In this document: positions 307-57,507 of the stretch, one piece after another | Layout of the letters: each line of letters starts with the position of its first letter | How positions within the stretch are numbered: position 1 is the stretch's first letter | Source of the DNA: Parcubacteria group bacterium Athens0714_16 | GTDB taxonomy: Bacteria > Patescibacteriota > Minisyncoccia > Phycocordibacterales > 21-14-all-36-13 | Direction of reading: 5' to 3' | DNA: 64,000 nucleotides | Assembly: GCA_007376805.1 (NCBI GenBank) | Contig: VMGX01000001.1 | Location: forward strand, 1,034 to 65,033 | Program-made: the position numbers and the translations under genes | Notes under the pieces: model-generated | The model's input: only the letters and a program-made list of their open reading frames with translations | Told to the model about the DNA's origin: nothing | The model's database searches: none

Positions 307-1221
307 CTATTTCTTGCCTAATAATATATTTATGGCCTTTGTCACAATTGGAAGAATATCATCATAAAGATTAAGGTCAACTATCTCTTTTAATTTAAAC
401 CATTTTGCATTATCAAGCCCACCGGATTTTCCAAGTTTTAATTCTTTATATTTTGCTTCTCCAAGAAAATACATAACCTGTTTTCTTATCTTTCCTTTTT
501 CTGGATCTGATGCAATATATTCATTGCTTCCTAATTTTTCTTTTATTTTTATATCAACACCTATTTCTTCTTTTATTTCTCTTACAGTCGCTTCTTTTTC
601 ATCTTCTCCTGCCTCTATTCTTCCTTTTGATAATGTCCAATGCCCAAACACATCATGCACAAATGCAAGATATATTTCATTTCCGGCCTGCGCGGGCAAA
701 TCTTTTTTGGCATAAACAACCGAACCACCAAGTTTTTCTATTGGCATTTCTTCATATGGAATATCTTTAATTTTTTTCTTTGTAGTTTCTTCCTTCCCTG
801 GTTCACCCAATTCTTTATATACAGAACCCAAAACTCCATTAACAAATCTACCACTACTTTCACCACCAAATCCTTTTGCAAGTTCTATGGATTCATTTAT
901 AGCAACCTTCGGAGGGACTTCTTTTCTACTAGAAAAAAGAAGTTCATACAAACCAATTCTTAAAATATTTCTATCAATAACCGCTATTTTTTCAATAGGC
1001 CATTCTGGGGCAGCCTTTGTTATGATACCGTCAAGTTTGGGTAAATTTTTAACAACACCTTTTGCAAGGTTTTTTATAAATTCACCATCATCAACACCAG
1101 GAGCAAACTCTTCTATATTTCGATTAATAATTTCATCCAATTCTTTTGTTTTTTTCCCAGAAAAATCCCACTCAAAAAGAGATTGCATTACTATTGACCG
1201 CGAAAGATGTCTGTTTGCCAT
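307..1221 (-). CDS. nusB: NusB antitermination factor fused to a C-terminal Nudix hydrolase domain
   Basis: N-terminal ~150 aa are NusB-like (RSIVMQSLFEWDF, RNILRIGLYELLF, PPKVAINESIELAK). After a Lys/Glu linker there is a Nudix fold with box GRIEAGEDEKEATVREIKEEIGV. Confidence 0.75.
   Translation of the reverse strand: MANRHLSRSIVMQSLFEWDFSGKKTKELDEIINRNIEEFAPGVDDGEFIKNLAKGVVKNLPKLDGIITKAAPEWPIEKIAVIDRNILRIGLYELLFSSRKEVPPKVAINESIELAKGFGGESSGRFVNGVLGSVYKELGEPGKEETTKKKIKDIPYEEMPIEKLGGSVVYAKKDLPAQAGNEIYLAFVHDVFGHWTLSKGRIEAGEDEKEATVREIKEEIGVDIKIKEKLGSNEYIASDPEKGKIRKQVMYFLGEAKYKELKLGKSGGLDNAKWFKLKEIVDLNLYDDILPIVTKAINILLGKK
683..706. repeat. GC-rich hairpin module H3 inside the nusB-Nudix CDS
   Basis: ccggcctgcgcgggcaaatctttt, encodes KKDLPAQAG on the minus strand. 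Confidence 0.8.
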
Positions 1222-2480: not shown

Positions 2481-3153
2481 TTACTTAATTTTGAAGTTTT
2501 TTAGGTATGTTTTTCTGTGTATTTTAGAAATTCCATATTTTTTTATATTTTTAATATGCAAAGCAGTCCCGTATCCCTTATGTTTGTGAAATTCATATTT
2601 TGGATATTTTTTTGATAAATCGCACATAACTTTGTCACGAGAGACTTTTGCAACAATTGATGCCAGAGCAATTACCTTTTCTTTCTCGTCACCTTTTATT
2701 ATTGTTTTTTGATTTAAAAATTTTTCAGGAGCTTTTATTCCTCCGTCTAACAAAACTCTGCATGTTTTAGGGTTGATATTTTCCAAACATTTATTAATTG
2801 CCTTTTGAATTGATTTTGAAATTCCTATTTTATCTATTTCTGAATTACTTACGTAAGCAATTTTATAATCAACAATCCCTTTCTTTTTCAGTTCTTTAAT
2901 TTTCTCAAACCACTCCTCTCTTTTTCCTGACGATAATTGTTTTGAATCCTTAACTCCACTAAAAACAGACATTTTAAAATTTTTTGCATTTATCTGCGCC
3001 TGCCCCGTAGCCAGAGCGTAACTCTGTCATCTGCGTTAATCTGCGATTTATTGGAACAATAAATGCACAAACACAAACAGGTCCAGCCAACGGTCCTCTC
3101 CCAACTTCATCAATTCCAATTAGATATTTTATTTTTCTAGAATTTGTGATCAT
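2481..3153 (-). pseudogene. rnhB: Ribonuclease HII split into two frames by a GC-rich repeat insertion and frameshift
   Basis: The N-terminal fragment from ATG 3151-3153 reads MITNSRKIKYLIGIDEVGRGPLAGPVCVCAFIV (catalytic DEVGRG) and then runs through the CGCAGAT-repeat insert to TAA at 2974-2976. The C-terminal ORF 2481..2972 (GVKDSKQLS...HKHKGYGT) is in the +1 frame. The break lies next to an A6/T4 homopolymer. Confidence 0.7.
2992..3047. repeat. CGCAGAT-repeat-containing GC-rich insert inside rnhB
   Basis: atctgcg occurs three times (2992, 3029, 3040) around gcctgccccgtagccagagcg. Confidence 0.75.
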
Positions 3154-3770: not shown

Positions 3771-6700
3771 ATGAATCCCAAATTTACACATCTCCACACT
3801 CACTCTCATTACAGCTTGCTTAATGCATTACCAAAAATACCGGAACTTGTTTCTGCTACAAAAGAAAAAAATATGAGCGCCGTTGCTCTTACTGATAACG
3901 GAAATCTTTATGGTGCAATTGAATTTTATAAAGAATGTAAAAAAGAAAACATAAAACCAATTATAGGTGTTGATTTTTATGTTGCACTTCGCACACGGCA
4001 CGATAGACAACCAGGGATTGATAGTAAAAGATACAGATTGGTGTTGTTAGCAAAAAATCATGATGGATATAAAAATTTAATAAAATTAGTAAGTGATTCA
4101 CATCTTACTGGTTTCTATTACAAACCAAGAATAGACAAAGAACTAATGAAAAAATATTCTGAAGGACTTATTGCAATAATTCCATCTTTTAGTGGAGAAA
4201 TAATAGAAAAAGTAAAAAACAGTGATTTTGAAACAGCAAAGAAAATTTTAAATGAGTATGAAGAAATTTATGGAAAAGAAAATTTGTTTGTAGAAATTAC
4301 ACATCACCCAGAAATTGACGGACATAATTTTATAACGAAAAAAACAATTGAATTTGCAAAAGACCTGTCCGCCTCTGGCGGAAGTGGAGCAAATTTAGTG
4401 GCATCACATGATGTTTATTATATACACCCAGAAGATAGAGAGGCACGAAATACACTTTTATCTATACAAACAAATCTTGACTTTGGCTCCAATAAACGAC
4501 TAACAAGCGAAGATGAGGACTTTTCTTTTATAGGACAAGAACAGGCAGAAAAATATTTTGCTGAAATTCCCGAAGCACTTGAAAACACACAAAAAATTTC
4601 TAACATGTGTAATTTAGAAATTAGTCTTGGTGGCTGGATCTTCCCTGAGGCAAAATCTACCAACGGATTAAACCATGATGACGAATTGTATAAATTAATA
4701 TACGACGGTTTAATTGAAAGAAAATTGGAAAAAACAGAAGAAGTTTTAAAAAGAATTGAATACGAGTATGGAATAATAAAAAAGAAAGGATATTGTCCAT
4801 ACTTTTTGGTTGTTAGTGATTTATTAAAATTCGCATTAAAAAATAACATCTTTACAAACACCAGGGGTTCTGCTGCTGGCTCACTTGTTTCTTATTTAAT
4901 TGGAATAACAAATATAAATCCTCTTGAATATCAAATTCCATTTGAAAGATTTTTAAATCCCGATAGGCCTTCGCTCCCCGATATAGATATTGATATGGCA
5001 GATAACAGGCGAGATGAAATGGTTCAATATGCAAAAGAAAAATATGGAGAAGACAGAGTCGCACAAATTGGGACATTCGGAACAATGGCAGCACGAGGAG
5101 CAATTCGTGACACAGCACGAGCATTAGGTTATCAATATGAAATCGGAGATAAAATATCAAAACAGATTCCTCTTGGGAAACAAGGTTTCCCAATGACAAT
5201 AGATAGAGCACTGGATGAAAATTCTGATTTGAAAAAAATGTACGCGACAGATAAAGACGTTAAAAAAATTGTAGATATGGCAAGAAAAATTGAAGGATGT
5301 GCAAGACACATTTCCGTTCATGCAGCAGGTATCGTTATCTCTCCAATTCCAGTAACAGAGTTCACACCAATTCAATTTGATCCGAAGGGTGGAAAATTAA
5401 TAACACAATATGATATGTATTCTATAGACCCCGACTATGGTGGTGTAGGACTTTTAAAATTTGATTTTCTTGGTTTAAAAAATCTCTCAATACTCGCAAG
5501 CTCAGTTGATTTAGTAAAAAAAATAAAAGGTGTGGATATTGATATACAAAATATTCAAATTGATGACAAAAAAACATTTGAGATGTTGGCTCGTGGAGAA
5601 ACTATGGGCGTATTTCAAATGGGTAGTGATGGGATGACAAAATATTTAAAAGATTTAAGACCGACCGAAATAAGAGATATAAACGCAATGATTGCTCTTT
5701 ATCGTCCCGGCCCGATGGCTTTTATTCCTGAATATATTAAAAGAAAAAGAAATCCTAAACTTGTAAAATATATTGACGAGAGATTAAGAAAAATTCTTGA
5801 AAAAACTTATGGGATTTTGATTTACCAGGACGATATTCTACTTATAGTCACAGAGCTTGCTGGCTATTCTTGGGCAGAGGCAGATAAATTTAGAAAAGCT
5901 GTTGGGAAAAAAATTCCACAAGAGATGCAAGCGCAAAAAGAAAAGTTCACCAGTGGTTGTATCAAAAACGGGATGAAACCAGATGTTGCAAAACAACTTT
6001 GGGAAATGATTGAAACATTCGCGGCATATGGTTTTAATAAGGCCCATTCTGTAAGTTACGGCAGAGTTACATATCAAACTGCTTACATGAAAGCTAATTT
6101 CCCTGTTATTTATATGTCCGCACTTCTAACCGCAGATGCAGGAGATGTTGAAAAAATTTCCGAAACAATTAACGAATGTAAAAGAATGGGGATTGAAGTT
6201 TTGCCCCCAAACATAAATGAAAGTTTTGGTAATTTTACTGTTATAGAAGAAGACGGAAAAGACAAAATTCGTTTTGGACTTTACAGTATCAAAAACTTTG
6301 GGGAAGGTATCGCTGATAAAATTATTACTACAAGAAAAGAGAGCGGTAGATTTAACTCGCTGGAAGATTTTTTAAATAAAGTAAAAGATAAAAATGTAAA
6401 TAAAAAATCTTTAGAAGCACTCATAAAATGTGGTGCCATGGATGAACTTGGTGAACGAGGACAAATGTTTGAAAATGTAGAAGATTTATTGTTGTATCAT
6501 CGCGAAGGGAAAAAAACAGACGAATCACAGGAGTCGTTGTTTGGTTTGATGGCAGATAGTTCAACAATACCAAAACTAAAACTCAATGAATCAATGCCCG
6601 CAACACAAACTGATAAGCTAACATGGGAAAAGGAACTGCTTGGTTTATACATTTCCGGACACCCACTTGATAAATTCAAAAACCAGCTCGAAAAAAGACA

Positions 6701-12312: not shown

Positions 12313-14052
12313 TCAACTAATTTTAAGTTTTTCTGCCCAGCAGTTTTTATTTTCTTCGTCTGGCACTGCAATTACCAATAATCTGCTCGGACGAGATATT
12401 GCCACATAGACATTTCTTAATTCTTCCTCTTCAGATATTTTACTGTTAGCTAACATAGTTTTGTAAGATTTCATCACTTTCTTTTTAAGAAATACAAGAA
12501 CTGCTTCAAAAGTTTCTCCTTTCACTTTATGAATTGTGCTAGGTCTATAGTCTGTTGGGACACTGTCAATATGTTCTTGTGGAAAGAGTTGAGAAAATTG
12601 TGCCTCCTTTAGGTTTTGATTTATTTTTAATTCAAATTCGTAATTTTTAGAACTAATGACTAAATTTGCTTCAGCTATCCACGCTCCAAGTCTAGTTGCA
12701 CTAACTGCTTTTGGGAGTAATTTTACAAATTTATATAACTCTTTTCTTAAGTTGCTAAATCCTCGTTCTTCAACAAACATATTAAAATTTTCTTCTGAAA
12801 AGTATGAGATGTTCTGTGTTGCCTTTAAGAAACCTCTTTCAATATATTTCATACCTCTAATAAAATCATTTCTATCATATAGGAACTTACCAAGAGCAAA
12901 ATCTCTGGTAAATGGAGATCCAACTAGCCAAGGACTTTCTCTATTGGGATTAGAGATAGCTTGTGTAAAAAAACTTTTTGACCTAAATAACACAGCTACA
13001 TTTTTAGGATTAAATTCAATACCATATTCCTTACACTTATTCTTGAAACTATTTAAGGTGGATTTTTTACCAGTAATAGTCTCCTCGTATGTCCATATTT
13101 CAGGACAGATATCACAGTCTTTTACTTTTTTATTAGTGGCAATGATTTTTCTTTCTCCTAATGAAGAAAAATTATAGACGACATCACATATTTTTTGTGA
13201 ACTACGCCAACTTTCATCTAGAATAATAGAATTGTTTTTCCAGTCCTGTTCTTTTTCTATGAATAAACTGGGTTTTGCGTCATTCCACTCAAATATAGCT
13301 TGATCTGGGTCGCCCACAATCATTATATTTTCCAAACCAGATTTTACAATAATATCTATGATTTGCATTTGTATTTCGGTGGTATCTTGTGCTTCATCAA
13401 TAATGAAAACAGGAAATCTTAAAGCCAATGATCTAGCAATTTTAGGATACTGCTCTAATATCTTTAATGCAAAATAGTTTGCATCTGCTTGAGTTGCAAA
13501 ACCCTTCTCATTAAAATCTTTCTTCATTTTTTGTAGTTTTTCATAATGACCATTCACTGTTTTTCCATTAGCATTTATTTTATTAGGAAAACCACCGAAG
13601 AAGTATTGAGCATCATTTTTTGGACACAAATCACCGTCTATTTTGTAACTAACTTTATCAAAGTATCTATTATAGTCTCTTTCATAAGCACCACCATTCC
13701 AAATACCGTATGGTTCTCCAACCATTATTGGGCGTTTTTCACAACCCAGAACAAGATGTCCAAACGGGAGAAAAATATATTGATTTATAAAACTATCAAT
13801 CGTGCCTAAAAAATGTGGGTAAGAAATGTGTGTATCAAAATCTTTTATACAGTTATCTCTTATTTCTTGCCAAGCAGTATTGGTAAAAGATATAGTAGCT
13901 ATACCTTTATATTCTTCAGTCCATTCAGATATTAACTTTGAGAATTTAGCTGAAACGCAGTATGTTTTACCGCTACCTGGACAAGCACGAACAACAAATT
14001 TTCCAGTTTTTCCTAAAACCTCTCTTTGTTTGTCTGATAATTTACTGAACAT
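12313..14052 (-). CDS. gajB: UvrD-like superfamily 1 helicase, GajB-like
   Basis: Walker A ACPGSGKTY, DEAQD box (FIIDEAQDT), and C-terminal VHKVKGETFEAVLV. It starts 3 nt after the gajA stop. Confidence 0.75.
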   Translation of the reverse strand: MFSKLSDKQREVLGKTGKFVVRACPGSGKTYCVSAKFSKLISEWTEEYKGIATISFTNTAWQEIRDNCIKDFDTHISYPHFLGTIDSFINQYIFLPFGHLVLGCEKRPIMVGEPYGIWNGGAYERDYNRYFDKVSYKIDGDLCPKNDAQYFFGGFPNKINANGKTVNGHYEKLQKMKKDFNEKGFATQADANYFALKILEQYPKIARSLALRFPVFIIDEAQDTTEIQMQIIDIIVKSGLENIMIVGDPDQAIFEWNDAKPSLFIEKEQDWKNNSIILDESWRSSQKICDVVYNFSSLGERKIIATNKKVKDCDICPEIWTYEETITGKKSTLNSFKNKCKEYGIEFNPKNVAVLFRSKSFFTQAISNPNRESPWLVGSPFTRDFALGKFLYDRNDFIRGMKYIERGFLKATQNISYFSEENFNMFVEERGFSNLRKELYKFVKLLPKAVSATRLGAWIAEANLVISSKNYEFELKINQNLKEAQFSQLFPQEHIDSVPTDYRPSTIHKVKGETFEAVLVFLKKKVMKSYKTMLANSKISEEEELRNVYVAISRPSRLLVIAVPDEENKNCWAEKLKIS

Positions 14053-14055
14053 AAA

Positions 14056-15813
14056 TTATTCATTTTTAGCAACATATTTTATAGCTTTTTCAATATATTT
14101 AGGGATGATAAAGTTATCAAAAGCCGATTGATCATTTTCTAGTCTAACCGCTAATCTGTGAGCTAATTCTGATTTTGATTTTTGATCATCAACTTTGTCA
14201 GCAAAATTCTTTGCATAAATTTTTTCATCTTTGTCTGGTGTTATTACTGTTAATGGATGAAATTCTTTATATATTTCTAATAATAATGTTTGATTATATT
14301 TACTTGCCAAAAAAAGCTCATATTCAAAAGTCATTTCTCCAGTAAAAACTTTTAATAAGCCAGTTTCTAATGTTTTTACTTTTCCTGCTCTTGTAGAACC
14401 ATCATCATTGATATTTTTCCTATCATCATCTGTTATAACGGCACAACGATGATTTATTCTTTTTTGTGAGTCAGATGAATTAAAAAGTTTTGCAAAGTGT
14501 TCAAAAGCAACCCCGTTTATATTTACAACTTCAATTCCAAGATTGTTAAGAAAATAATTTATACCTATCTTTTTACTGAAAATTGGTAATAATAATGACT
14601 CTGATATTCCTTCTACTAGGATTGTTCCATTTGCAAAGAATAACTGTGATTTTGTGACATCTAAAAATTTTTGAAGGAATTTTTTATTATTTTCATTTAG
14701 TTCAGAGTTTATTACAGAAAGAGCAAAAGTTTCATTTGATATATGTTGTAAAACAATCAAGGAGTCTAGACCAGCTTTTGCTGTTATTGTTGGAGAATGA
14801 GACGAAACAAAGGTCTGAAAATTTTGATTAGTAGAAAGTTCTGACAAATAATTAAAAAATAGGTTTTGTAGCTGTGGATGTAAGTGAGCTTCTGGTTCTT
14901 CAATTAAAAGTGAAAAATAAGAGTTTGAGTCTTTTTCTTTTTTTTGTTTTATGTCTCCTAAAACAGTAGCTATATATATTAAATTGTTATACCCCAAACC
15001 ATTCTGCCAAATACTCAAATAGCGTTGTTCGTAAGTAGGGTCTTTATCAAGAATATCTTTATCAAAAACTGGTATTTGTATATGTAGATTGTTAAGTATT
15101 TCCGCAAAACCAAGTCCACTAAAACTAATTTCTATTTTTTGAGTTTTATCAGAAAATGTAGTTTTATCTAAATGTTCACAGACTTTTTCTTTACCTTTAT
15201 TTATAAAATCTTTCCAATTTTCATTTTCTAACACCGTTTTTATTTCTTTTACCAATCCTTTTTTCTGCTCTTCTGTGTATGTTTCAATCTCGGAATAAAG
15301 TCTAGATAATTTACTATCTTTAAATGGTTTCAAAAACTGTTCTGCGTCTCGGAGAGCTCCCAAATGAACATAGTTAATTAACTGTAATACCTCATTAGAT
15401 ATTTGCTGTCCTTCATTTTCTCCACCCCATATTTTATATTTTAACTTTCCTTTTACATCTAAATAATATCTTATATGTAATTGTAGACTTGTTTCTCCAT
15501 TATCCTCATCAATTGTTAACATTTCTCTAAAAATTGCAGTTTCTGACTCATCTTCTATAACAAAAAGTAAATCAAATTTAACTTCATTTGTAATTTGAGC
15601 TGGATTGGTTCTGTCAATGTGAAAATCATTTTCTTTTGAAAAATATATATCTCTTCGTAAACTTCCCCAACCAAGAGATAAGCGTAAAGCATCAACGATT
15701 GCAGTTTTTCCAACATTGTTTTCTCCTACTAAAATATTGAGTCCTTTCTTAAAATGGAGAATGAGGTCTTTTACTGTTCTATAGTTTTGTATTCTAAAAT
15801 CTCTTAAATACAT
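14056..15813 (-). CDS. gajA: OLD-family ATPase plus Toprim nuclease, GajA-like
   Basis: From ATG 15811-15813: MYLRDFRIQNYRTVKDL..LVGENNVGKTAIVDAL (ABC/AAA15-type Walker A), LLIEEPEAHLHP (Walker B/D-loop), and Toprim ILVEGISE ... AVITDDD. The track start at 15924 runs into repeat X and is rejected. Confidence 0.8.
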   Translation of the reverse strand: MYLRDFRIQNYRTVKDLILHFKKGLNILVGENNVGKTAIVDALRLSLGWGSLRRDIYFSKENDFHIDRTNPAQITNEVKFDLLFVIEDESETAIFREMLTIDEDNGETSLQLHIRYYLDVKGKLKYKIWGGENEGQQISNEVLQLINYVHLGALRDAEQFLKPFKDSKLSRLYSEIETYTEEQKKGLVKEIKTVLENENWKDFINKGKEKVCEHLDKTTFSDKTQKIEISFSGLGFAEILNNLHIQIPVFDKDILDKDPTYEQRYLSIWQNGLGYNNLIYIATVLGDIKQKKEKDSNSYFSLLIEEPEAHLHPQLQNLFFNYLSELSTNQNFQTFVSSHSPTITAKAGLDSLIVLQHISNETFALSVINSELNENNKKFLQKFLDVTKSQLFFANGTILVEGISESLLLPIFSKKIGINYFLNNLGIEVVNINGVAFEHFAKLFNSSDSQKRINHRCAVITDDDRKNINDDGSTRAGKVKTLETGLLKVFTGEMTFEYELFLASKYNQTLLLEIYKEFHPLTVITPDKDEKIYAKNFADKVDDQKSKSELAHRLAVRLENDQSAFDNFIIPKYIEKAIKYVAKNE

Positions 15814-15908
15814 AAGATATATTTTACCACATTTTGTCAAAAAAATCTTGAAAAAAATAGAAAAACTTACAAATACGATGTTGAAAACCAAAGAGAGAAT
15901 GAGATCAT

Positions 15909-16025
15909 AGAGGACTCGACACAAGTCTCTAATTCGCTACGCTCATAAGAGCCTGTCGTCACGACTCGGCGACAAGCACTCGCTTTGCTCGTCTTGTATA
16001 CCGCCTCCGTCTTTCGAGTCCTAAC
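15909..16025 (-). repeat. Repeat X, proximal copy (117 bp), fused to the tRNA-Ala T-loop
   Basis: It starts right after UUCGAGU of the tRNA. Its first bases (UAGGACUCGAA) are an inverted copy of the T-loop. It is followed by AUGAUCU, a decayed CUGGUCC. Confidence 0.95.
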
Positions 16026-16151: not shown

Positions 16152-17147
16152 TTAATACAAAGTAAGATTTATAAGATGATTTATAAAACTTGGTAAACCT
16201 ACCCCAACCTCATTTAATTCTCTAACGAAAGGAGCATTTTCAGACAGGTCTGGCAAAGCATTCGTTTCCAACAAATAAATTCCCCTTCTTGGAGAAACAA
16301 TAAAATCAGATCTTGAGTAGTGTCTAAGATTCAAAACATTATGTGCTTTGTTCGCTATTTTTTGTACATCTTTTTTTAAACTTATGGGCAAACTTGTTGG
16401 ACATGAAAATGTTGTACCACCCGCCTGAGCGGGCAAGTCTTTTTTAGAATAATCAAAAAAATCTTCACCCTTATTTAATATTATTTCCAAAGGCATCAAC
16501 TCATATGTTTCTTCATTTCTAAAATTATCAATTACTCCACATGTGATTTGTTTTCCTTCTATAAATTCCTCAACTAAAATAGTCTCATATTTATTTAATA
16601 AATCTCCTAAAGAGAAAAGTAATGTATCGAAATCTCTCGCAACAAAAATATCATTTGAAGAGCCCCCAGAAACAGGCTTCATAATTAATGGTATACCAAA
16701 TCCCCTAAATATATCCAAAGCAATTTTTTCAACCTCCAAATCATTTTTTACAATTATATATCTAGGTGTTTTTAGCCCCGCATTTTCAAATATTTTTTTT
16801 GCAAAATATTTATTAAAACTCATAAGTGATGGCAACGCCCGAGAACCTGTGTATGGTATAGAAAAATTATTAAGAACTCTCTGTAGAGAACCGTCCTCAC
16901 CAAAATCACCGTGTATAGAATTTATAACTAAATCTACATCTCTCAATATTTTTTCTGGACTTGTTTGAACACCTCTAAGATTCCAAGATAAGTCTTTTGA
17001 AATAATTACATCTTTGACGATGTATTCTTTGGGTATATTTTTAATAAAGGATACGCCTGTATTTAAAGATAGTCCGCGTTCTTTCCCCGGACCACCCCGA
17101 AGAAGACCAATTTTTATTTCTTTTCCAGAATCAATAAAGTTTTTCAT
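16152..17147 (-). CDS. ddl: D-alanine--D-alanine ligase
   Basis: ATP-grasp fold (IPLIMKPVSGGSSNDIFV, LVEEFIEGKQITCGVI) and C-terminal SRSDFIV...YLLETNALP. Confidence 0.9.
   Translation of the reverse strand: MKNFIDSGKEIKIGLLRGGPGKERGLSLNTGVSFIKNIPKEYIVKDVIISKDLSWNLRGVQTSPEKILRDVDLVINSIHGDFGEDGSLQRVLNNFSIPYTGSRALPSLMSFNKYFAKKIFENAGLKTPRYIIVKNDLEVEKIALDIFRGFGIPLIMKPVSGGSSNDIFVARDFDTLLFSLGDLLNKYETILVEEFIEGKQITCGVIDNFRNEETYELMPLEIILNKGEDFFDYSKKDLPAQAGGTTFSCPTSLPISLKKDVQKIANKAHNVLNLRHYSRSDFIVSPRRGIYLLETNALPDLSENAPFVRELNEVGVGLPSFINHLINLTLY
16420..16443. repeat. GC-rich hairpin module H3 inside the ddl CDS
   Basis: cccgcctgagcgggcaagtctttt, 21/24 identical to 683..706, and also encodes KKDLPAQAG. 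Confidence 0.8.
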
Positions 17148-19179: not shown

Positions 19180-20466
19180 TTAATATTTTTCACCTTTCAA
19201 ATATTTTCCCAAAAAATCTCTTTTAAATTCAAAAAAAGTATCGTCTAAGATAGATTGTCTCATTTTTTTAACAAGATTAACTATAAAATATAAATTGTGT
19301 ATGGAAGCGAGTGTTGCACCAAGCATTTCTTTTGATCTAAAAAGATGTGATAAATATGCCTTAGTGTAGCTTGCCCCGCCATGGCGGGATGAACATGTGT
19401 AACAATCACAATTTTCATCGAGTTTTGAAAAATCATTTTTATACTTAGCATTTAATATATTTATCTTTCCACTCGTTGTATACATAGTTCCATTTCTAGC
19501 AATTCTTGTTGGTGCAACACAATCAAACGTGTCTATTCCATTTTCAACGCCTATAAATAAATCTATCGGTTCGCCTATACCCAAAAGATGTCTAGATTTT
19601 TCTTCTGGCAAAATTGAATTAATCCAAACAAGTGATTTATCTATGTCATTTTTCTCAAATGAACCACCTATACCAAATCCATTGAAATCCATCGCTCCGA
19701 TTGTTTTTGCACTTTCCTTACGTAGTTTTTCATTATTACCACCTTGAACTATGCCATAAATCGCAGATGGACGCGGATCAGACGCAGATTTACGCAGATC
19801 AAAATTTAATTTTTTATGATGTATGAGACATCTGTCTGCCCAGCGGTGTGTTCTATTCATTGCCTCTTCAAGATATTTTTCAGAGTTGTTTGGAGACGTA
19901 CATTCATCAAACGCAAAAATTATATCCGCACCTATATTATGTTGAATTTCAATTGATTTTTCCGGAGTAAAAAAATGTGGACTCCCATCTATGTGTGATT
20001 TAAATTCGACTCCTTCTTCTTTTATTTTTATACTTCCCTTTTGTAAAAATTCTTCGTTTTTATAAATTTTTTTTGCTAATTCATCTACATCATTTGTTTG
20101 GTTATTTATTTTACTAACATCAGAATCAAAACCAGAACCAAGAGAAAATACTTGAAAACCACCTGAGTCAGTTATTGTCGGCCCGTCCCAATTCATAAAT
20201 TTTCCTAAACCACCGGCAGATTTTACAATTTTATCTCCGGGTTCCAAATATAAATGATAAGTATTGGCCAAAACAACTTCTGCACCTAAATCTTTTACTT
20301 GCTCAGGTGTGAGTGCTTTAACAGTTGCCTTTGTTCCCACAACAGAAAAAGCTGGAGTTTTTATTATTCCATGCGATGTTTTTATTTCGCCAACTCTTCC
20401 TAAATATTCTTTTCCGCCAGAGGCGGATCCGCCTCTGGCGGAAATTCTTTTTTCTATTCTAAACAT
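19180..20466 (-). CDS. tgt: Queuine tRNA-ribosyltransferase, enlarged by three repeat-derived inserts
   Basis: TPAFSVVGTKATVKALTPEQVKDLGAEVVLANTYHLYLEPG, FTDSGGFQVFSL, GIGGSF and CDCYTC zinc site. It is 428 aa, against my recollection of ~375 aa for E. coli Tgt. Confidence 0.9.
   Translation of the reverse strand: MFRIEKRISARGGSASGGKEYLGRVGEIKTSHGIIKTPAFSVVGTKATVKALTPEQVKDLGAEVVLANTYHLYLEPGDKIVKSAGGLGKFMNWDGPTITDSGGFQVFSLGSGFDSDVSKINNQTNDVDELAKKIYKNEEFLQKGSIKIKEEGVEFKSHIDGSPHFFTPEKSIEIQHNIGADIIFAFDECTSPNNSEKYLEEAMNRTHRWADRCLIHHKKLNFDLRKSASDPRPSAIYGIVQGGNNEKLRKESAKTIGAMDFNGFGIGGSFEKNDIDKSLVWINSILPEEKSRHLLGIGEPIDLFIGVENGIDTFDCVAPTRIARNGTMYTTSGKINILNAKYKNDFSKLDENCDCYTCSSRHGGASYTKAYLSHLFRSKEMLGATLASIHNLYFIVNLVKKMRQSILDDTFFEFKRDFLGKYLKGEKY
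19375..19388. repeat. GC palindrome inside the tgt CDS
   Basis: cccgccatggcggg (perfect), encodes RHGGA. Confidence 0.7.
19762..19800. repeat. CGCAGAT 10-nt periodic repeat inside the tgt CDS
   Basis: cgcagatggacgcggatcagacgcagatttacgcagatc. Confidence 0.8.
20413..20442. repeat. Two abutting H4 hairpins inside the tgt CDS
   Basis: tccgccagaggcgga + tccgcctctggcgga, encodes SARGGSASGG. Confidence 0.8.
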
Positions 20467-32711: not shown

Positions 32712-33698
32712 TCAATTTTTTAAATACTCGTGAATTATTTTTTCAACATCTTTTGCATTCTTTGTTTCCATTAATTTTGTTCTTAATTCTTTTGCGCCAT
32801 CCCAACCGTTTACATACGCTTTAAAATGTTTTTTCATAACATCAAAATGTTTCCTGCCTGCGCAGGCGGGTCCATCCCCAAAAATTTTTACAAAAAGTTT
32901 TGTGTGTTCTAAAAGAATTTTTAACTTTTGTTCTGTTGTCGGTTCAAAATTTTCATTCAAAAGCCACGGTTTACCAAAAAATCCTCTGCCTATCATTATT
33001 CCATCACAACCAGTTTCTTTGGCACGCGCCAATCCTTCTTTTCTGCTTTTTACATCCCCGTTTCCTATTATCAAAGTTTTTGATTTTAAACTATCACGAA
33101 TCTCAACGGCGCACATCACGACAGACCAATCGGCCGGAACTTTTGACATTTCTTTTTTGGTTCGCGCATGAATCGTAATCGTGACAGGATTTTCTGCGAG
33201 TAATTCTGGAAGCCATTTTTCAATTTCATTTTTGTTATAACCAATTCGTGTCTTTATAGACACCGGAATTTCTCCCGCCCCTTCTTTTGCAGAACAAATT
33301 ATTTGGCGAGCGAGTTTTGGATTTTTTATAAGTTCCGCCCCTGCTCCTTGTTTCAAAACACTTTTGTCTGGACATCCCATATTTATATCAATTCCATCAA
33401 AACCCATTTTTACAACAAGTTCACATGCCTTTTTTATTGTTTCTGGTTTTGAACCAAATAATTGTGCAACAATTGGTCTTTCGGTTTCAGAAAAAATTAA
33501 ATGTTGTTTTAAAACATCTTTTCCTTTGCTTAAAAGCCCATCAGCGGAAACAAATTCCGTAAACATAACGTCTGGCCCGCCTACGGACGGGTTAAATTTT
33601 CCATATTTAGCAATAATTTGTCTAAATGGTGCATCTGTAACATCATACATTGGTGCAACACAAAAAAATGGTTTTTTTAGTTTTGTCCAAAAAATCAT
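32712..33698 (-). CDS. dus: tRNA-dihydrouridine synthase
   Basis: APMYDVTDAPFR, GIDINMGCP, ITIHARTK, GNGDV motifs. Confidence 0.9.
   Translation of the reverse strand: MIFWTKLKKPFFCVAPMYDVTDAPFRQIIAKYGKFNPSVGGPDVMFTEFVSADGLLSKGKDVLKQHLIFSETERPIVAQLFGSKPETIKKACELVVKMGFDGIDINMGCPDKSVLKQGAGAELIKNPKLARQIICSAKEGAGEIPVSIKTRIGYNKNEIEKWLPELLAENPVTITIHARTKKEMSKVPADWSVVMCAVEIRDSLKSKTLIIGNGDVKSRKEGLARAKETGCDGIMIGRGFFGKPWLLNENFEPTTEQKLKILLEHTKLFVKIFGDGPACAGRKHFDVMKKHFKAYVNGWDGAKELRTKLMETKNAKDVEKIIHEYLKN
32853..32870. repeat. GC-rich hairpin H3 inside the dus CDS
   Basis: cctgcctgcgcaggcggg, encodes GPACAGR. Confidence 0.7.
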
Positions 33699-49320: not shown

Positions 49321-49397
49321 TTAGTAGCCGAGTCCGCCGAAATGGCGGATAAACTCCGCGAGGCGAACCTTCAAAACTTGCAATTTCCTCAATGGTG

Positions 49398-57256: not shown

Positions 57257-57338
57257 GCCCGGGTGGCGGAACTGGTATACGCGCACGACTTAAAATCGTG
57301 TCCTGTATGGGATGCGGGTTCGATTCCCGCCCCGGGCA
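57257..57338 (+). tRNA. tRNA-Leu(UAA)
   Basis: GCCCGGG UG GCG GAACUGGUAUA CGC G CACGA CUUAAAA UCGUG UCCUGUAUGGGAU GCGGG UUCGAUU CCCGC CCCGGGC A. Confidence 0.9.
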
Positions 57339-57507
57339 CAAAGTAATTGGGGAATAAGCAAATTTCCTCCAGAGACGGACAAGTATTTGCTTATGTCGGG
57401 AATCGAATGATTTTTTATGTTGAGCGTAGCGAAACAAAAAATCACGGGTGAGCAAAGCGAAATTCCCCCTGCCTGCGCAGGCAGGGCCCCGGGCACAAAG
57501 TGATTGG
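57339..57507 (+). repeat. tRNA-Leu(UAA) 3'-flank element ending in a duplicate of the tRNA 3' end
   Basis: 57329..57350 (gccccgggcacaaagtaattgg) recurs at 57486..57507 with 1 mismatch. The interior has stems ATAAGCAAAT/ATTTGCTTAT, TGATTTTTT/AAAAAATCA and GGGAAT/ATTCCC. Confidence 0.8.
57467..57486. repeat. GC-rich hairpin H3 (perfect 7-bp stem) inside the tRNA-Leu(UAA) flank element
   Basis: ccctgcctgcgcaggcaggg. Confidence 0.75.

Follow-up and report, generated by a model that had tools for sequence, protein, structure and literature searches.

How do two unrelated proteins encoded 15.7 kb apart on the same strand come to share nine consecutive residues, together with most of the nucleotides that encode them? 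This question is raised by a stretch of 64,000 nucleotides (the window) from Parcubacteria group bacterium Athens0714_16 (contig VMGX01000001.1). One of the proteins is a NusB-Nudix fusion (open reading frame (ORF) 307-1221, minus strand; Pfam NusB at amino acids (aa) 7-136, NUDIX at aa 193-285), the other the D-Ala-D-Ala ligase Ddl (ORF 16152-17147, minus strand; Pfam Dala_Dala_lig_N and Dala_Dala_lig_C, the latter at aa 120-326), and both ORFs are intact. According to a preliminary description of this DNA, positions 683-706 (ccggcctgcgcgggcaaatctttt) and 16420-16443 (cccgcctgagcgggcaagtctttt) share 21 of their 24 nucleotides, and each reads KKDLPAQAG when translated from the minus strand. 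The quoted sequences and their identity could be reproduced, and the ORF translations agree, with the residues at aa 172-180 of NusB-Nudix and aa 235-243 of Ddl. The Ddl site was correctly assigned to the C-terminal region, as it lies inside Dala_Dala_lig_C. The other site had been placed in the Nudix domain; the fusion is confirmed, but the site is N-terminal to the stretch aligned by Pfam NUDIX and is located, in the AlphaFold2 (AF2) model, in the first beta-hairpin of the fold.

The nucleotide match between the two genes is not a product of chance. The window has a GC content of only 29-35%, so the two GC-rich 24-nt islands stand out. A 12-mer core (GCCTGNGCNGGC), counted with up to one mismatch, occurs at 4 loci where 0.21 are expected from shuffled sequences, and the 18-mer consensus described below, with up to three mismatches, yields 2 matches against an expectation of 0.00. 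A random origin is excluded because both counts exceed those of the shuffles in this AT-rich window.

In all probability, the shared residues result from same-frame insertion of an 18-nt element, here called PAL, behind a pre-existing AAAAAAGA and after the second base of a codon in both genes. NusB-Nudix and Ddl would then agree over nine residues because PAL was inserted in the same frame, read (D)-L-P-A-Q-A-G, after two native lysines; the placement turns GA|N into GAC or GAT (Asp) and supplies L-P-A-Q-A as well as the GG of the glycine codon. The unit is not the 24-nt module originally proposed, as the gap in relatives is exactly 18 nt and the KK(D) part is native. The PAL consensus (CCTGCCTGCGCAGGCAGG) is a GC-rich, perfect palindrome of 18 bp that folds into a 7-bp stem with a 4-nt GCGC loop (-6.5 kcal/mol). 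Insertions into genes keep the frame open, because the element has no stop codon in any reading frame and its 18 nt correspond to six codons. The term “hairpin”, as initially applied to the shared stretches, is appropriate in a historical sense, but the NusB copy now folds no better than shuffled sequence (-2.0 kcal/mol); its register is uncertain by 2 nt (685-702 for an ancestral AAAAAAGGAAAT). The related copies noted earlier in dus (as GPACAGR) and beside tRNA-Leu(taa) are both present. Three of the four window copies are inside genes, and their density is about 1 per 16 kb (Table 1).

Table 1. PAL-type and B-type insertions in the window, with the flanks that precede two of them (L numbers designate compared loci; B denotes a second hairpin family, described in the text).
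Feature	Position	Strand	Sequence and remarks
PAL-derived 18-nt insertion, NusB-Nudix	683..700	minus	TTTGCCCGCGCAGGCCGG, read (D)LPAQA(G); 4 mismatches to consensus
Native target flank, NusB-Nudix insertion	701..708	minus	AAAAAAGA (Lys-Lys + GA); AAAAAA(A) in the empty sites of L002 and L150
B-family 18-nt in-frame insertion, DnaE	4364..4381	plus	CCTGTCCGCCTCTGGCGG, LSASGG, behind AAAGA
PAL-derived 18-nt insertion, Ddl	16420..16437	minus	CTTGCCCGCTCAGGCGGG, read LPAQAG; 4 differences from consensus, all synonymous
Native target flank, Ddl insertion	16438..16445	minus	AAAAAAGA (Lys-Lys-Asp); SKKD/SKRN in insert-free orthologs
Two head-to-head B hairpins, Tgt N-terminus	20413..20442	minus	30-nt perfect palindrome, adds SARGGSASGG; 30-nt gap in L001
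PAL copy, dus	32853..32870	minus	CCCGCCTGCGCAGGCAGG, 1 mismatch, phase 0, read PACAGR
Perfect PAL, non-coding	57468..57485	.	CCTGCCTGCGCAGGCAGG; 20-nt palindrome over 57467-57486

The proposal that a mobile module was inserted into both genes, as opposed to convergent protein evolution, is supported: the inserts are missing from close orthologs, and the 18-mer recurs in unrelated genes and genomes. Orthologs had been named as the place to test it, and none of 120 NusB-Nudix homologs carries the residues, including proteins of 96% and 92% identity, which read AKK-TGD and AKK-GN where the window has AKK-DLPAQA-GN. KK is kept in the nearest homologs. In the DNA alignment with the two closest relatives, L002 lacks exactly 18 nt, and L150 (92% DNA identity) lacks 15 nt. 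The arrangement SKKD-LPAQAG-Gxxx-SCP of Ddl is confined to the window and protein P0003, while P0002 (88%), P0004 (83%) and P0005-P0008 (71-78%) pass from SKKD or SKRN directly to xxxYSCP, and E. coli DdlB and 50+ distant Ddl proteins are without the insert residues. L151 and L152 lack exactly 18 nt of DNA in Ddl, the empty site of L151 being tcaAAAAAAGA^Tagc (AAAAAAGA^T, where ^ marks the insertion point), and the Ddl gene of L001 has a perfect PAL at the same nucleotide as the diverged copy of the window. The idea that KKD is part of the element was rejected, as AAAAAA(GA) is already found in empty sites. In a neighbour-joining tree, the two Ddl carriers belong to different clades with 95-96% bootstrap support, and both have a sister without the insert. 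Judged from this tree, the insert would have been gained twice at one and the same nucleotide, or gained once and precisely lost at least three times.

Two sites in dus show the same kind of polymorphism in both directions. At the first, the window has PAL (FGDG-PACAGR-KHF) and L001 has nothing, leaving an exact 18-nt gap; among 120 Dus homologs this site is filled only in the window. At the second, 17 codons downstream, it is L001 that has a perfect PAL (SGW-PACAGR-DGAKE), with a clean 18-nt difference to the empty site of the window, and four of the 120 homologs (clusters) are filled, their identity to the query being 85, 82, 62 and 59%. No target-site duplication was found in six comparisons of empty and filled sites (NusB, Ddl, dus site 1, dus site 2, DnaE and Tgt), the differences being exactly 18 or 30 nt.

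According to the structural models, the inserts in NusB-Nudix and Ddl are both in flexible surface loops. In the AF2 model of NusB-Nudix, the insert forms a loop between strands 161-172 and 183-190, where the predicted local distance difference test score (pLDDT) falls below 50 at aa 176-178. The Ddl model has a mean pLDDT of 92, and the lowest internal confidence, at aa 231-240 (pLDDT 70), coincides with the insert loop; when aligned to E. coli DdlB, this block directly follows a Lys-Tyr which we take to be part of the omega-loop.

As a refinement of the preliminary description, the palindromic element is not private to this genome and represents a family spread across Patescibacteria. With one genome per species, exact PAL was found in at least 120 genome stretches. 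Among the matches listed, with lineages taken from record titles, about 70 carry Patescibacteria names from many classes (WWE3, Microgenomates groups, Paceibacteria groups, Saccharibacteria, Dojkabacteria), about 15 are low-GC Bacteroidota and several are low-GC bins labelled “uncultured Gammaproteobacteria”, the remainder being high-GC genomes. About 9 exact matches would be expected by chance at uniform composition, and we estimate far less than 1 over all genomes of 35-45% GC. Matches in high-GC genomes (Streptomyces, Burkholderiales, Terriglobia) were treated as chance, since such an 18-mer is expected at high GC. For the same reason the 25 matches in viral contigs, all but three at GC 0.50-0.67, provide no evidence for a phage vector.

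A metagenome scan for DNA encoding K-K-D-L-P-A-Q-A-G, with synonymous positions left free, returned 38 stretches, and 33 of these consist of exact AAAAAAGA followed by PAL. They represent about 28 distinct sites, with host genes for PolA (DNA polymerase I), YebC, SecA, ClpB, TsaD, TopA (topoisomerase I), SHMT, RsmA, a DUF2779 protein and others. Because the combination occurs at so many sites in unrelated genes, the nine-residue coincidence is a recurrent outcome and not a peculiarity of this window. It is the nucleotides of PAL, beyond the residues, which recur in at least ten unrelated protein families. Discrete 18-bp units have been added without duplication, at preferred sites, repeatedly and in many lineages.

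The preference was determined from 192 half-site flanks in a genome set that is unbiased with respect to the flank. A purine is found at position -1 in 80% and no other position is conserved; AGA^ is enriched 4.5-fold (p 1.6e-6), and for AAAAAGA^ and AAAAAAGA^ the enrichment is 18-22-fold, although from very few counts. The preference for GA^ is one-sided, with 26 sites showing it at a single end of PAL and no site at both ends. When PAL is preceded by AAAAAAGA, the sequence on its 3' side is likewise rich in A and G, so that these insertions sit in A-rich purine runs coding for Lys and Glu. The same 192 flanks contain no GTAG or CGTC tag and no other conserved unpaired tetranucleotide adjoining PAL. 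Single 9-nt half-sites show no enrichment, the 64 kb containing none apart from the four copies, and longer units bounded by PAL halves (CCTGCCTGC...GCAGGCAGG) are absent from about 1.2 Mb of fetched loci, where only hairpins with other loops were found.

Survival in genes is biased towards one frame: at GC <0.46, ORFs with 250 aa or more read the element 26 times as xLPAQAG, 6 times as PACAGR and never as CLRRQ (p 3e-8). Among 88 PAL sites in loci of GC <0.46, 59 are in an ORF of at least 100 aa and 29 are outside any, in genomes that are typically about 90% coding. It is the frame bias together with this one-third non-coding share which indicates that PAL inserts are translated and filtered by selection.

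PAL is accompanied by a second hairpin family (B), in which the stem (TCCGCC/GGCGGA) is conserved and the loop is variable. The B insert in DnaE corresponds to an 18-nt gap in L002, and a protein alignment shows the L150 ortholog to be without the six residues SASGGS; the insert folds with -6.4 kcal/mol (z -3.35). The double B insert in Tgt reaches -20.2 kcal/mol (z -7.65). In a survey of indels (2 aa or more) among genes that the window and its relatives share as orthologs, most of the longer ones turn out to be GC-rich hairpin modules, namely PAL in dus (twice), Ddl and NusB, and B in DnaE and Tgt. The repeat family described here seems to be where most short in-frame differences in length between close relatives of this lineage come from. 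In other genomes, variants of the PAL stem with other loops and B hairpins with varied loops occur, sometimes adjacent to each other.

The non-coding PAL copy of the window lies 128 nt downstream of tRNA-Leu(taa), and the 3' end of this tRNA is duplicated immediately behind PAL: the last 11 nt of the tRNA and 10 nt downstream (CCCCGGGCACAAAGTRATTGG), at 57327-57351, are found again 156 nt further on at 57483-57507. The repeat begins right after PAL, which stands in place of the T-arm hairpin. A tRNA-like function of this copy was rejected, as ARAGORN and Rfam report only four normal tRNAs. In five Patescibacteria genomes, PAL occurs at the same position in a 5' fragment or extra copy of tRNA-Gln (...GGATCG^PAL^TCTAATGGTAGGAC; L031:1735, L041:3540, L042:6792, L046:372, L114:728), each with an intact tRNA-Gln within about 400 nt. 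Bacteroidota have intergenic copies in L016, L037, L075, L081, L087 and L106 (Sphingobacteriales metagenome-assembled genome (MAG) bin43) and in L109 and L116 (Bacteroidota MAG). The flanks of these consist of a few recurring sequence modules, combined differently on either side, and in L109 and L116 a B-type hairpin (TCCGCCAGCTGGCGGA) is located 50-70 nt from PAL.

Of several possible explanations for the origin of new copies, we tentatively favour, at somewhat less than even confidence, a process in which resident copies are copied by microhomology-primed template switching during replication or repair. A 3' end in an A-rich sequence terminating in GA would pair with the identical flank of a donor PAL copy, copy the hairpin and then return to its own locus. 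An element-encoded enzyme would not be required, and selection would retain only insertions that are in frame, located in loops and innocuous. The NusB-Nudix copy would be derived from a resident copy like that in Ddl. We favour such copying because a one-sided short match (A-rich GA) also precedes many existing copies, and because the young NusB copy is not consensus and has bases and flank in common with the Ddl copy. The former is missing from a relative at 92% DNA identity and 30% divergence at four-fold sites, for which about 1.1 differences from consensus would be expected, and it has 4 (p about 0.03); two derived bases (T2 and C7) and the 8-nt flank are common to the two copies. Additional reasons are the presence of PAL at junctions of duplicated fragments (the tRNA-Leu 3' end and the tRNA-Gln fragments in five genomes) and the different combination of flank modules on either side of PAL in the Sphingobacteriales MAG.

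A number of points weigh against this preference. No enzyme, donor-recipient intermediate or experiment favours any one mechanism. The identical consensus in anciently diverged lineages is easier to explain by sequence-specific machinery or horizontal spread than by passive copying, and most of the AAAAAAGA+PAL copies in metagenomes are perfect, and therefore point to a “master” sequence or to strong homogenisation. The Ddl pattern could also reflect a single gain followed by allele transfer through homologous recombination between related lineages, and the A-rich Lys/Glu flanks could in part mark tolerated places such as surface loops and not a landing preference. The copy density is that of 64 kb of this genome alone (4 PAL-type and 3-4 B-type copies). 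A more far-reaching conception, in which PAL and the TCCGCC...GGCGGA hairpins are both products of a sequence-specific insertion machinery of Patescibacteria and some Bacteroidota that writes an 18-bp palindrome behind ...AGA at replication forks or breaks, we regard as rather doubtful.

The strongest competitor to template switching, possible but not probable in our judgement, is that PAL is a miniature transposon moved in trans by an enzyme that recognises the single-stranded DNA hairpin and inserts it 3' of ...AGA without duplication. A transposase of the HUH/Y1 class (IS200/IS605 type, including the transposases associated with repetitive extragenic palindromic (REP) sequences, RAYT) or a nuclease-ligase would be candidates. 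The exact unit length, the lack of duplication, the one-sided target preference and the recurrence of insertions at identical nucleotides are all as expected from such an enzyme, which would also better account for the same consensus in many Patescibacteria classes and some Bacteroidota and for perfect AAAAAAGA+PAL copies; the existence in the same genomes of a second family with conserved stem and variable loop fits equally. However, no GTAG, CGTC or other conserved unpaired tetranucleotide stands next to PAL, no longer elements bounded by PAL halves exist in the fetched loci, and the recent NusB copy is not consensus. Nor is there a transposase-like gene among the seven window proteins scanned, the other ORFs being outside that scan.

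We consider it improbable that PAL is kept for a function in DNA or RNA, be it as the binding site of a conserved dimeric protein, as a DNA-uptake signal in these competent bacteria or as an mRNA hairpin, with the coding insertions as by-products. An 18-bp palindrome that is nucleotide-perfect across deep lineages would be well explained in this way, as would the 29 of 88 low-GC sites outside ORFs of at least 100 aa, which are an excess if the genomes are about 90% coding. Against a function, the presence of PAL varies between close relatives and between sites in one gene, copies decay by synonymous drift to the point that the NusB copy has lost its fold, and the density is low. An uptake signal would further predict enriched 9-nt half-sites, which is not the case.

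It is very unlikely that the nine residues are ancestral or functionally convergent and were lost by relatives. An old gain with losses could also place the Ddl insert at the same nucleotide in two separate clades. However, a single old gain in Ddl requires at least three precise 18-nt losses, the insert is absent from all 120 NusB-Nudix homologs, from E. coli DdlB and from the 50+ distant Ddl proteins, and the identity extends to synonymous positions, to a non-coding copy and to the genes of at least ten unrelated families. That the inserts arose as an artefact of assembly or sequencing, for instance through an adapter or a chimeric junction, can be practically dismissed even though the element is short and palindromic and every carrier examined is a MAG or metagenome contig, as the same insert-bearing proteins (including NusB-Nudix) are found in NCBI, ENA and Logan assemblies, the carriers come from many studies and assemblers, the coding inserts compared measure 18 or 30 nt and preserve the frame (those located by AF2 being in loops), and the copies have diverged at synonymous positions and favour one reading frame.

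Additional length differences were encountered in the window and its relatives. The Tgt gene of L001 (7655-9010) has two further in-frame insertions of 48 and 57 nt that are not in the window; these contain inverted repeats of 12 bp and 8 bp and are not GC-rich PAL or B units. In the Tgt gene of the window, a palindrome (CCCGCCATGGCGGG) at 19375-19388 (minus strand) encodes some of the residues of SSRHGGAS, a segment flanked by the CxCxxC zinc motif and YTKAYLSHL. At this site E. coli Tgt presumably has only RN. As L001 carries a diverged version (SSRYGGTS), the palindrome probably goes back to an earlier insertion of the same broad type. An intergenic B-family-like hairpin (TCCGCCGAAATGGCGGA) at 49333-49359, upstream of a ClpB-like gene, overlaps a second short inverted repeat. 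The RNase HII gene (about 2481-3110) has a different polymorphic insertion at about 2987-3054 (minus strand), between CVCAFIV and KNFxMSVF, with repeated CGCAGAT words; it is absent (0 nt) in L150, 90 nt long and in frame in L002, and about 67 nt long in the window, where it puts the N-terminal DEVGRG part out of frame with the rest. The gene of the window is either a pseudogene, a split gene or an assembly error. Finally, the adjacent genes at 12313-15924 (minus strand) code for a protein with AAA_15 and OLD-like TOPRIM parts (622 aa) and a UvrD-like helicase (579 aa), which look like a putative Gabija-type defence pair.

The insertions provide a concrete and testable process for the occurrence of identical peptides in unrelated essential enzymes, and they add recurrent peptides (DLPAQAG, PACAGR, SASGG) to proteomes. 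An 18-bp element that is conserved to the nucleotide across a superphylum and repeatedly enters the same sites raises the question of what copies it. As PAL insertions are homoplastic, they mislead indel-based phylogeny and ortholog clustering; they could also mark recent genome dynamics in organisms that mostly resist cultivation. Given a dedicated insertion machinery, every other mobile DNA unit known would be larger than PAL, and the proteins of these reduced genomes would owe many of their new surface loops to it. In the searchable literature, which is itself incomplete, we found the PAL sequence, its peptides and insertions of this type in Patescibacteria nowhere described.

Among known systems, PAL can be compared with the Rickettsia palindromic elements (RPE), reportedly described by Ogata and colleagues in 2000 as insertions into the genes of an AT-rich reduced genome and thought to be at protein surfaces. 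Both RPE and intragenic REPs can be inserted in frame into genes that apparently still function (PMC3733652), and the short RPE-4 and RPE-6 are now classed as CGTC-type REPs. PAL resembles them in being in frame within intact ORFs and in low-pLDDT loops. However, RPE are about 25-150 bp long and confined to Rickettsia, the short ones being CGTC-tagged, whereas PAL has 18 bp, is perfect and untagged, has another sequence and is nucleotide-identical across many Patescibacteria classes, with a target preference of ...AGA^. REPs are short, GC-rich, dispersed stem-loops, sometimes found inside genes including those for replication and repair, and their superfamilies are defined by a GTAG or CGTC tag (PMC3733652); paired REPs (REPINs) are regarded as mobile (PMC3116915). 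PAL too is a short, GC-rich, repeated and dispersed stem-loop, but REPs are tagged, imperfect palindromes of 20-40 bp that are mostly extragenic, often paired and linked to RAYT, while PAL is untagged and mostly solitary, with about two thirds of its low-GC sites inside ORFs of at least 100 aa, and none of the 7 proteins scanned from the 64-kb window is a RAYT. Miniature inverted-repeat transposable elements (about 50-500 bp) have the terminal inverted repeats of a full-length insertion sequence and duplicate their target, in contrast to PAL, where the whole element is the inverted repeat and no duplication is produced.

GC-rich hairpin modules in small AT-rich genomes are also familiar from organelles. 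The GC clusters of yeast mitochondrial DNA occur occasionally in coding sequence and have short target duplications. Repetitive hairpin elements proliferate in the mitochondrial genome of sponges, now and then within coding sequence as well (PMC2800124). These elements (yeast, sponge, placozoan) are organellar and have 30-60 bp or more, unlike PAL with its 18 bp and lack of target duplication, and to our knowledge they are not shared between distant lineages. Among bacterial repeats that look mobile, we know of only the small dispersed repeats of cyanobacteria as being of comparable size; Elhai and colleagues are said to have described them in 2008 as units of 21-27 nt, and they are not perfect palindromes. 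The cyanobacterial HIP1 is a short palindrome that is abundant inside genes (PMC5861425), but its 8 bp accumulate by substitution and selection, whereas PAL is a discrete 18-nt indel. DNA uptake sequences, with single copies of 9-12 nt at about 1 per kb, are far denser than PAL, for which half-sites are rare. PAL is thus a very small REP/RPE-like insertion element, a widely shared variant of the palindromic repeats.

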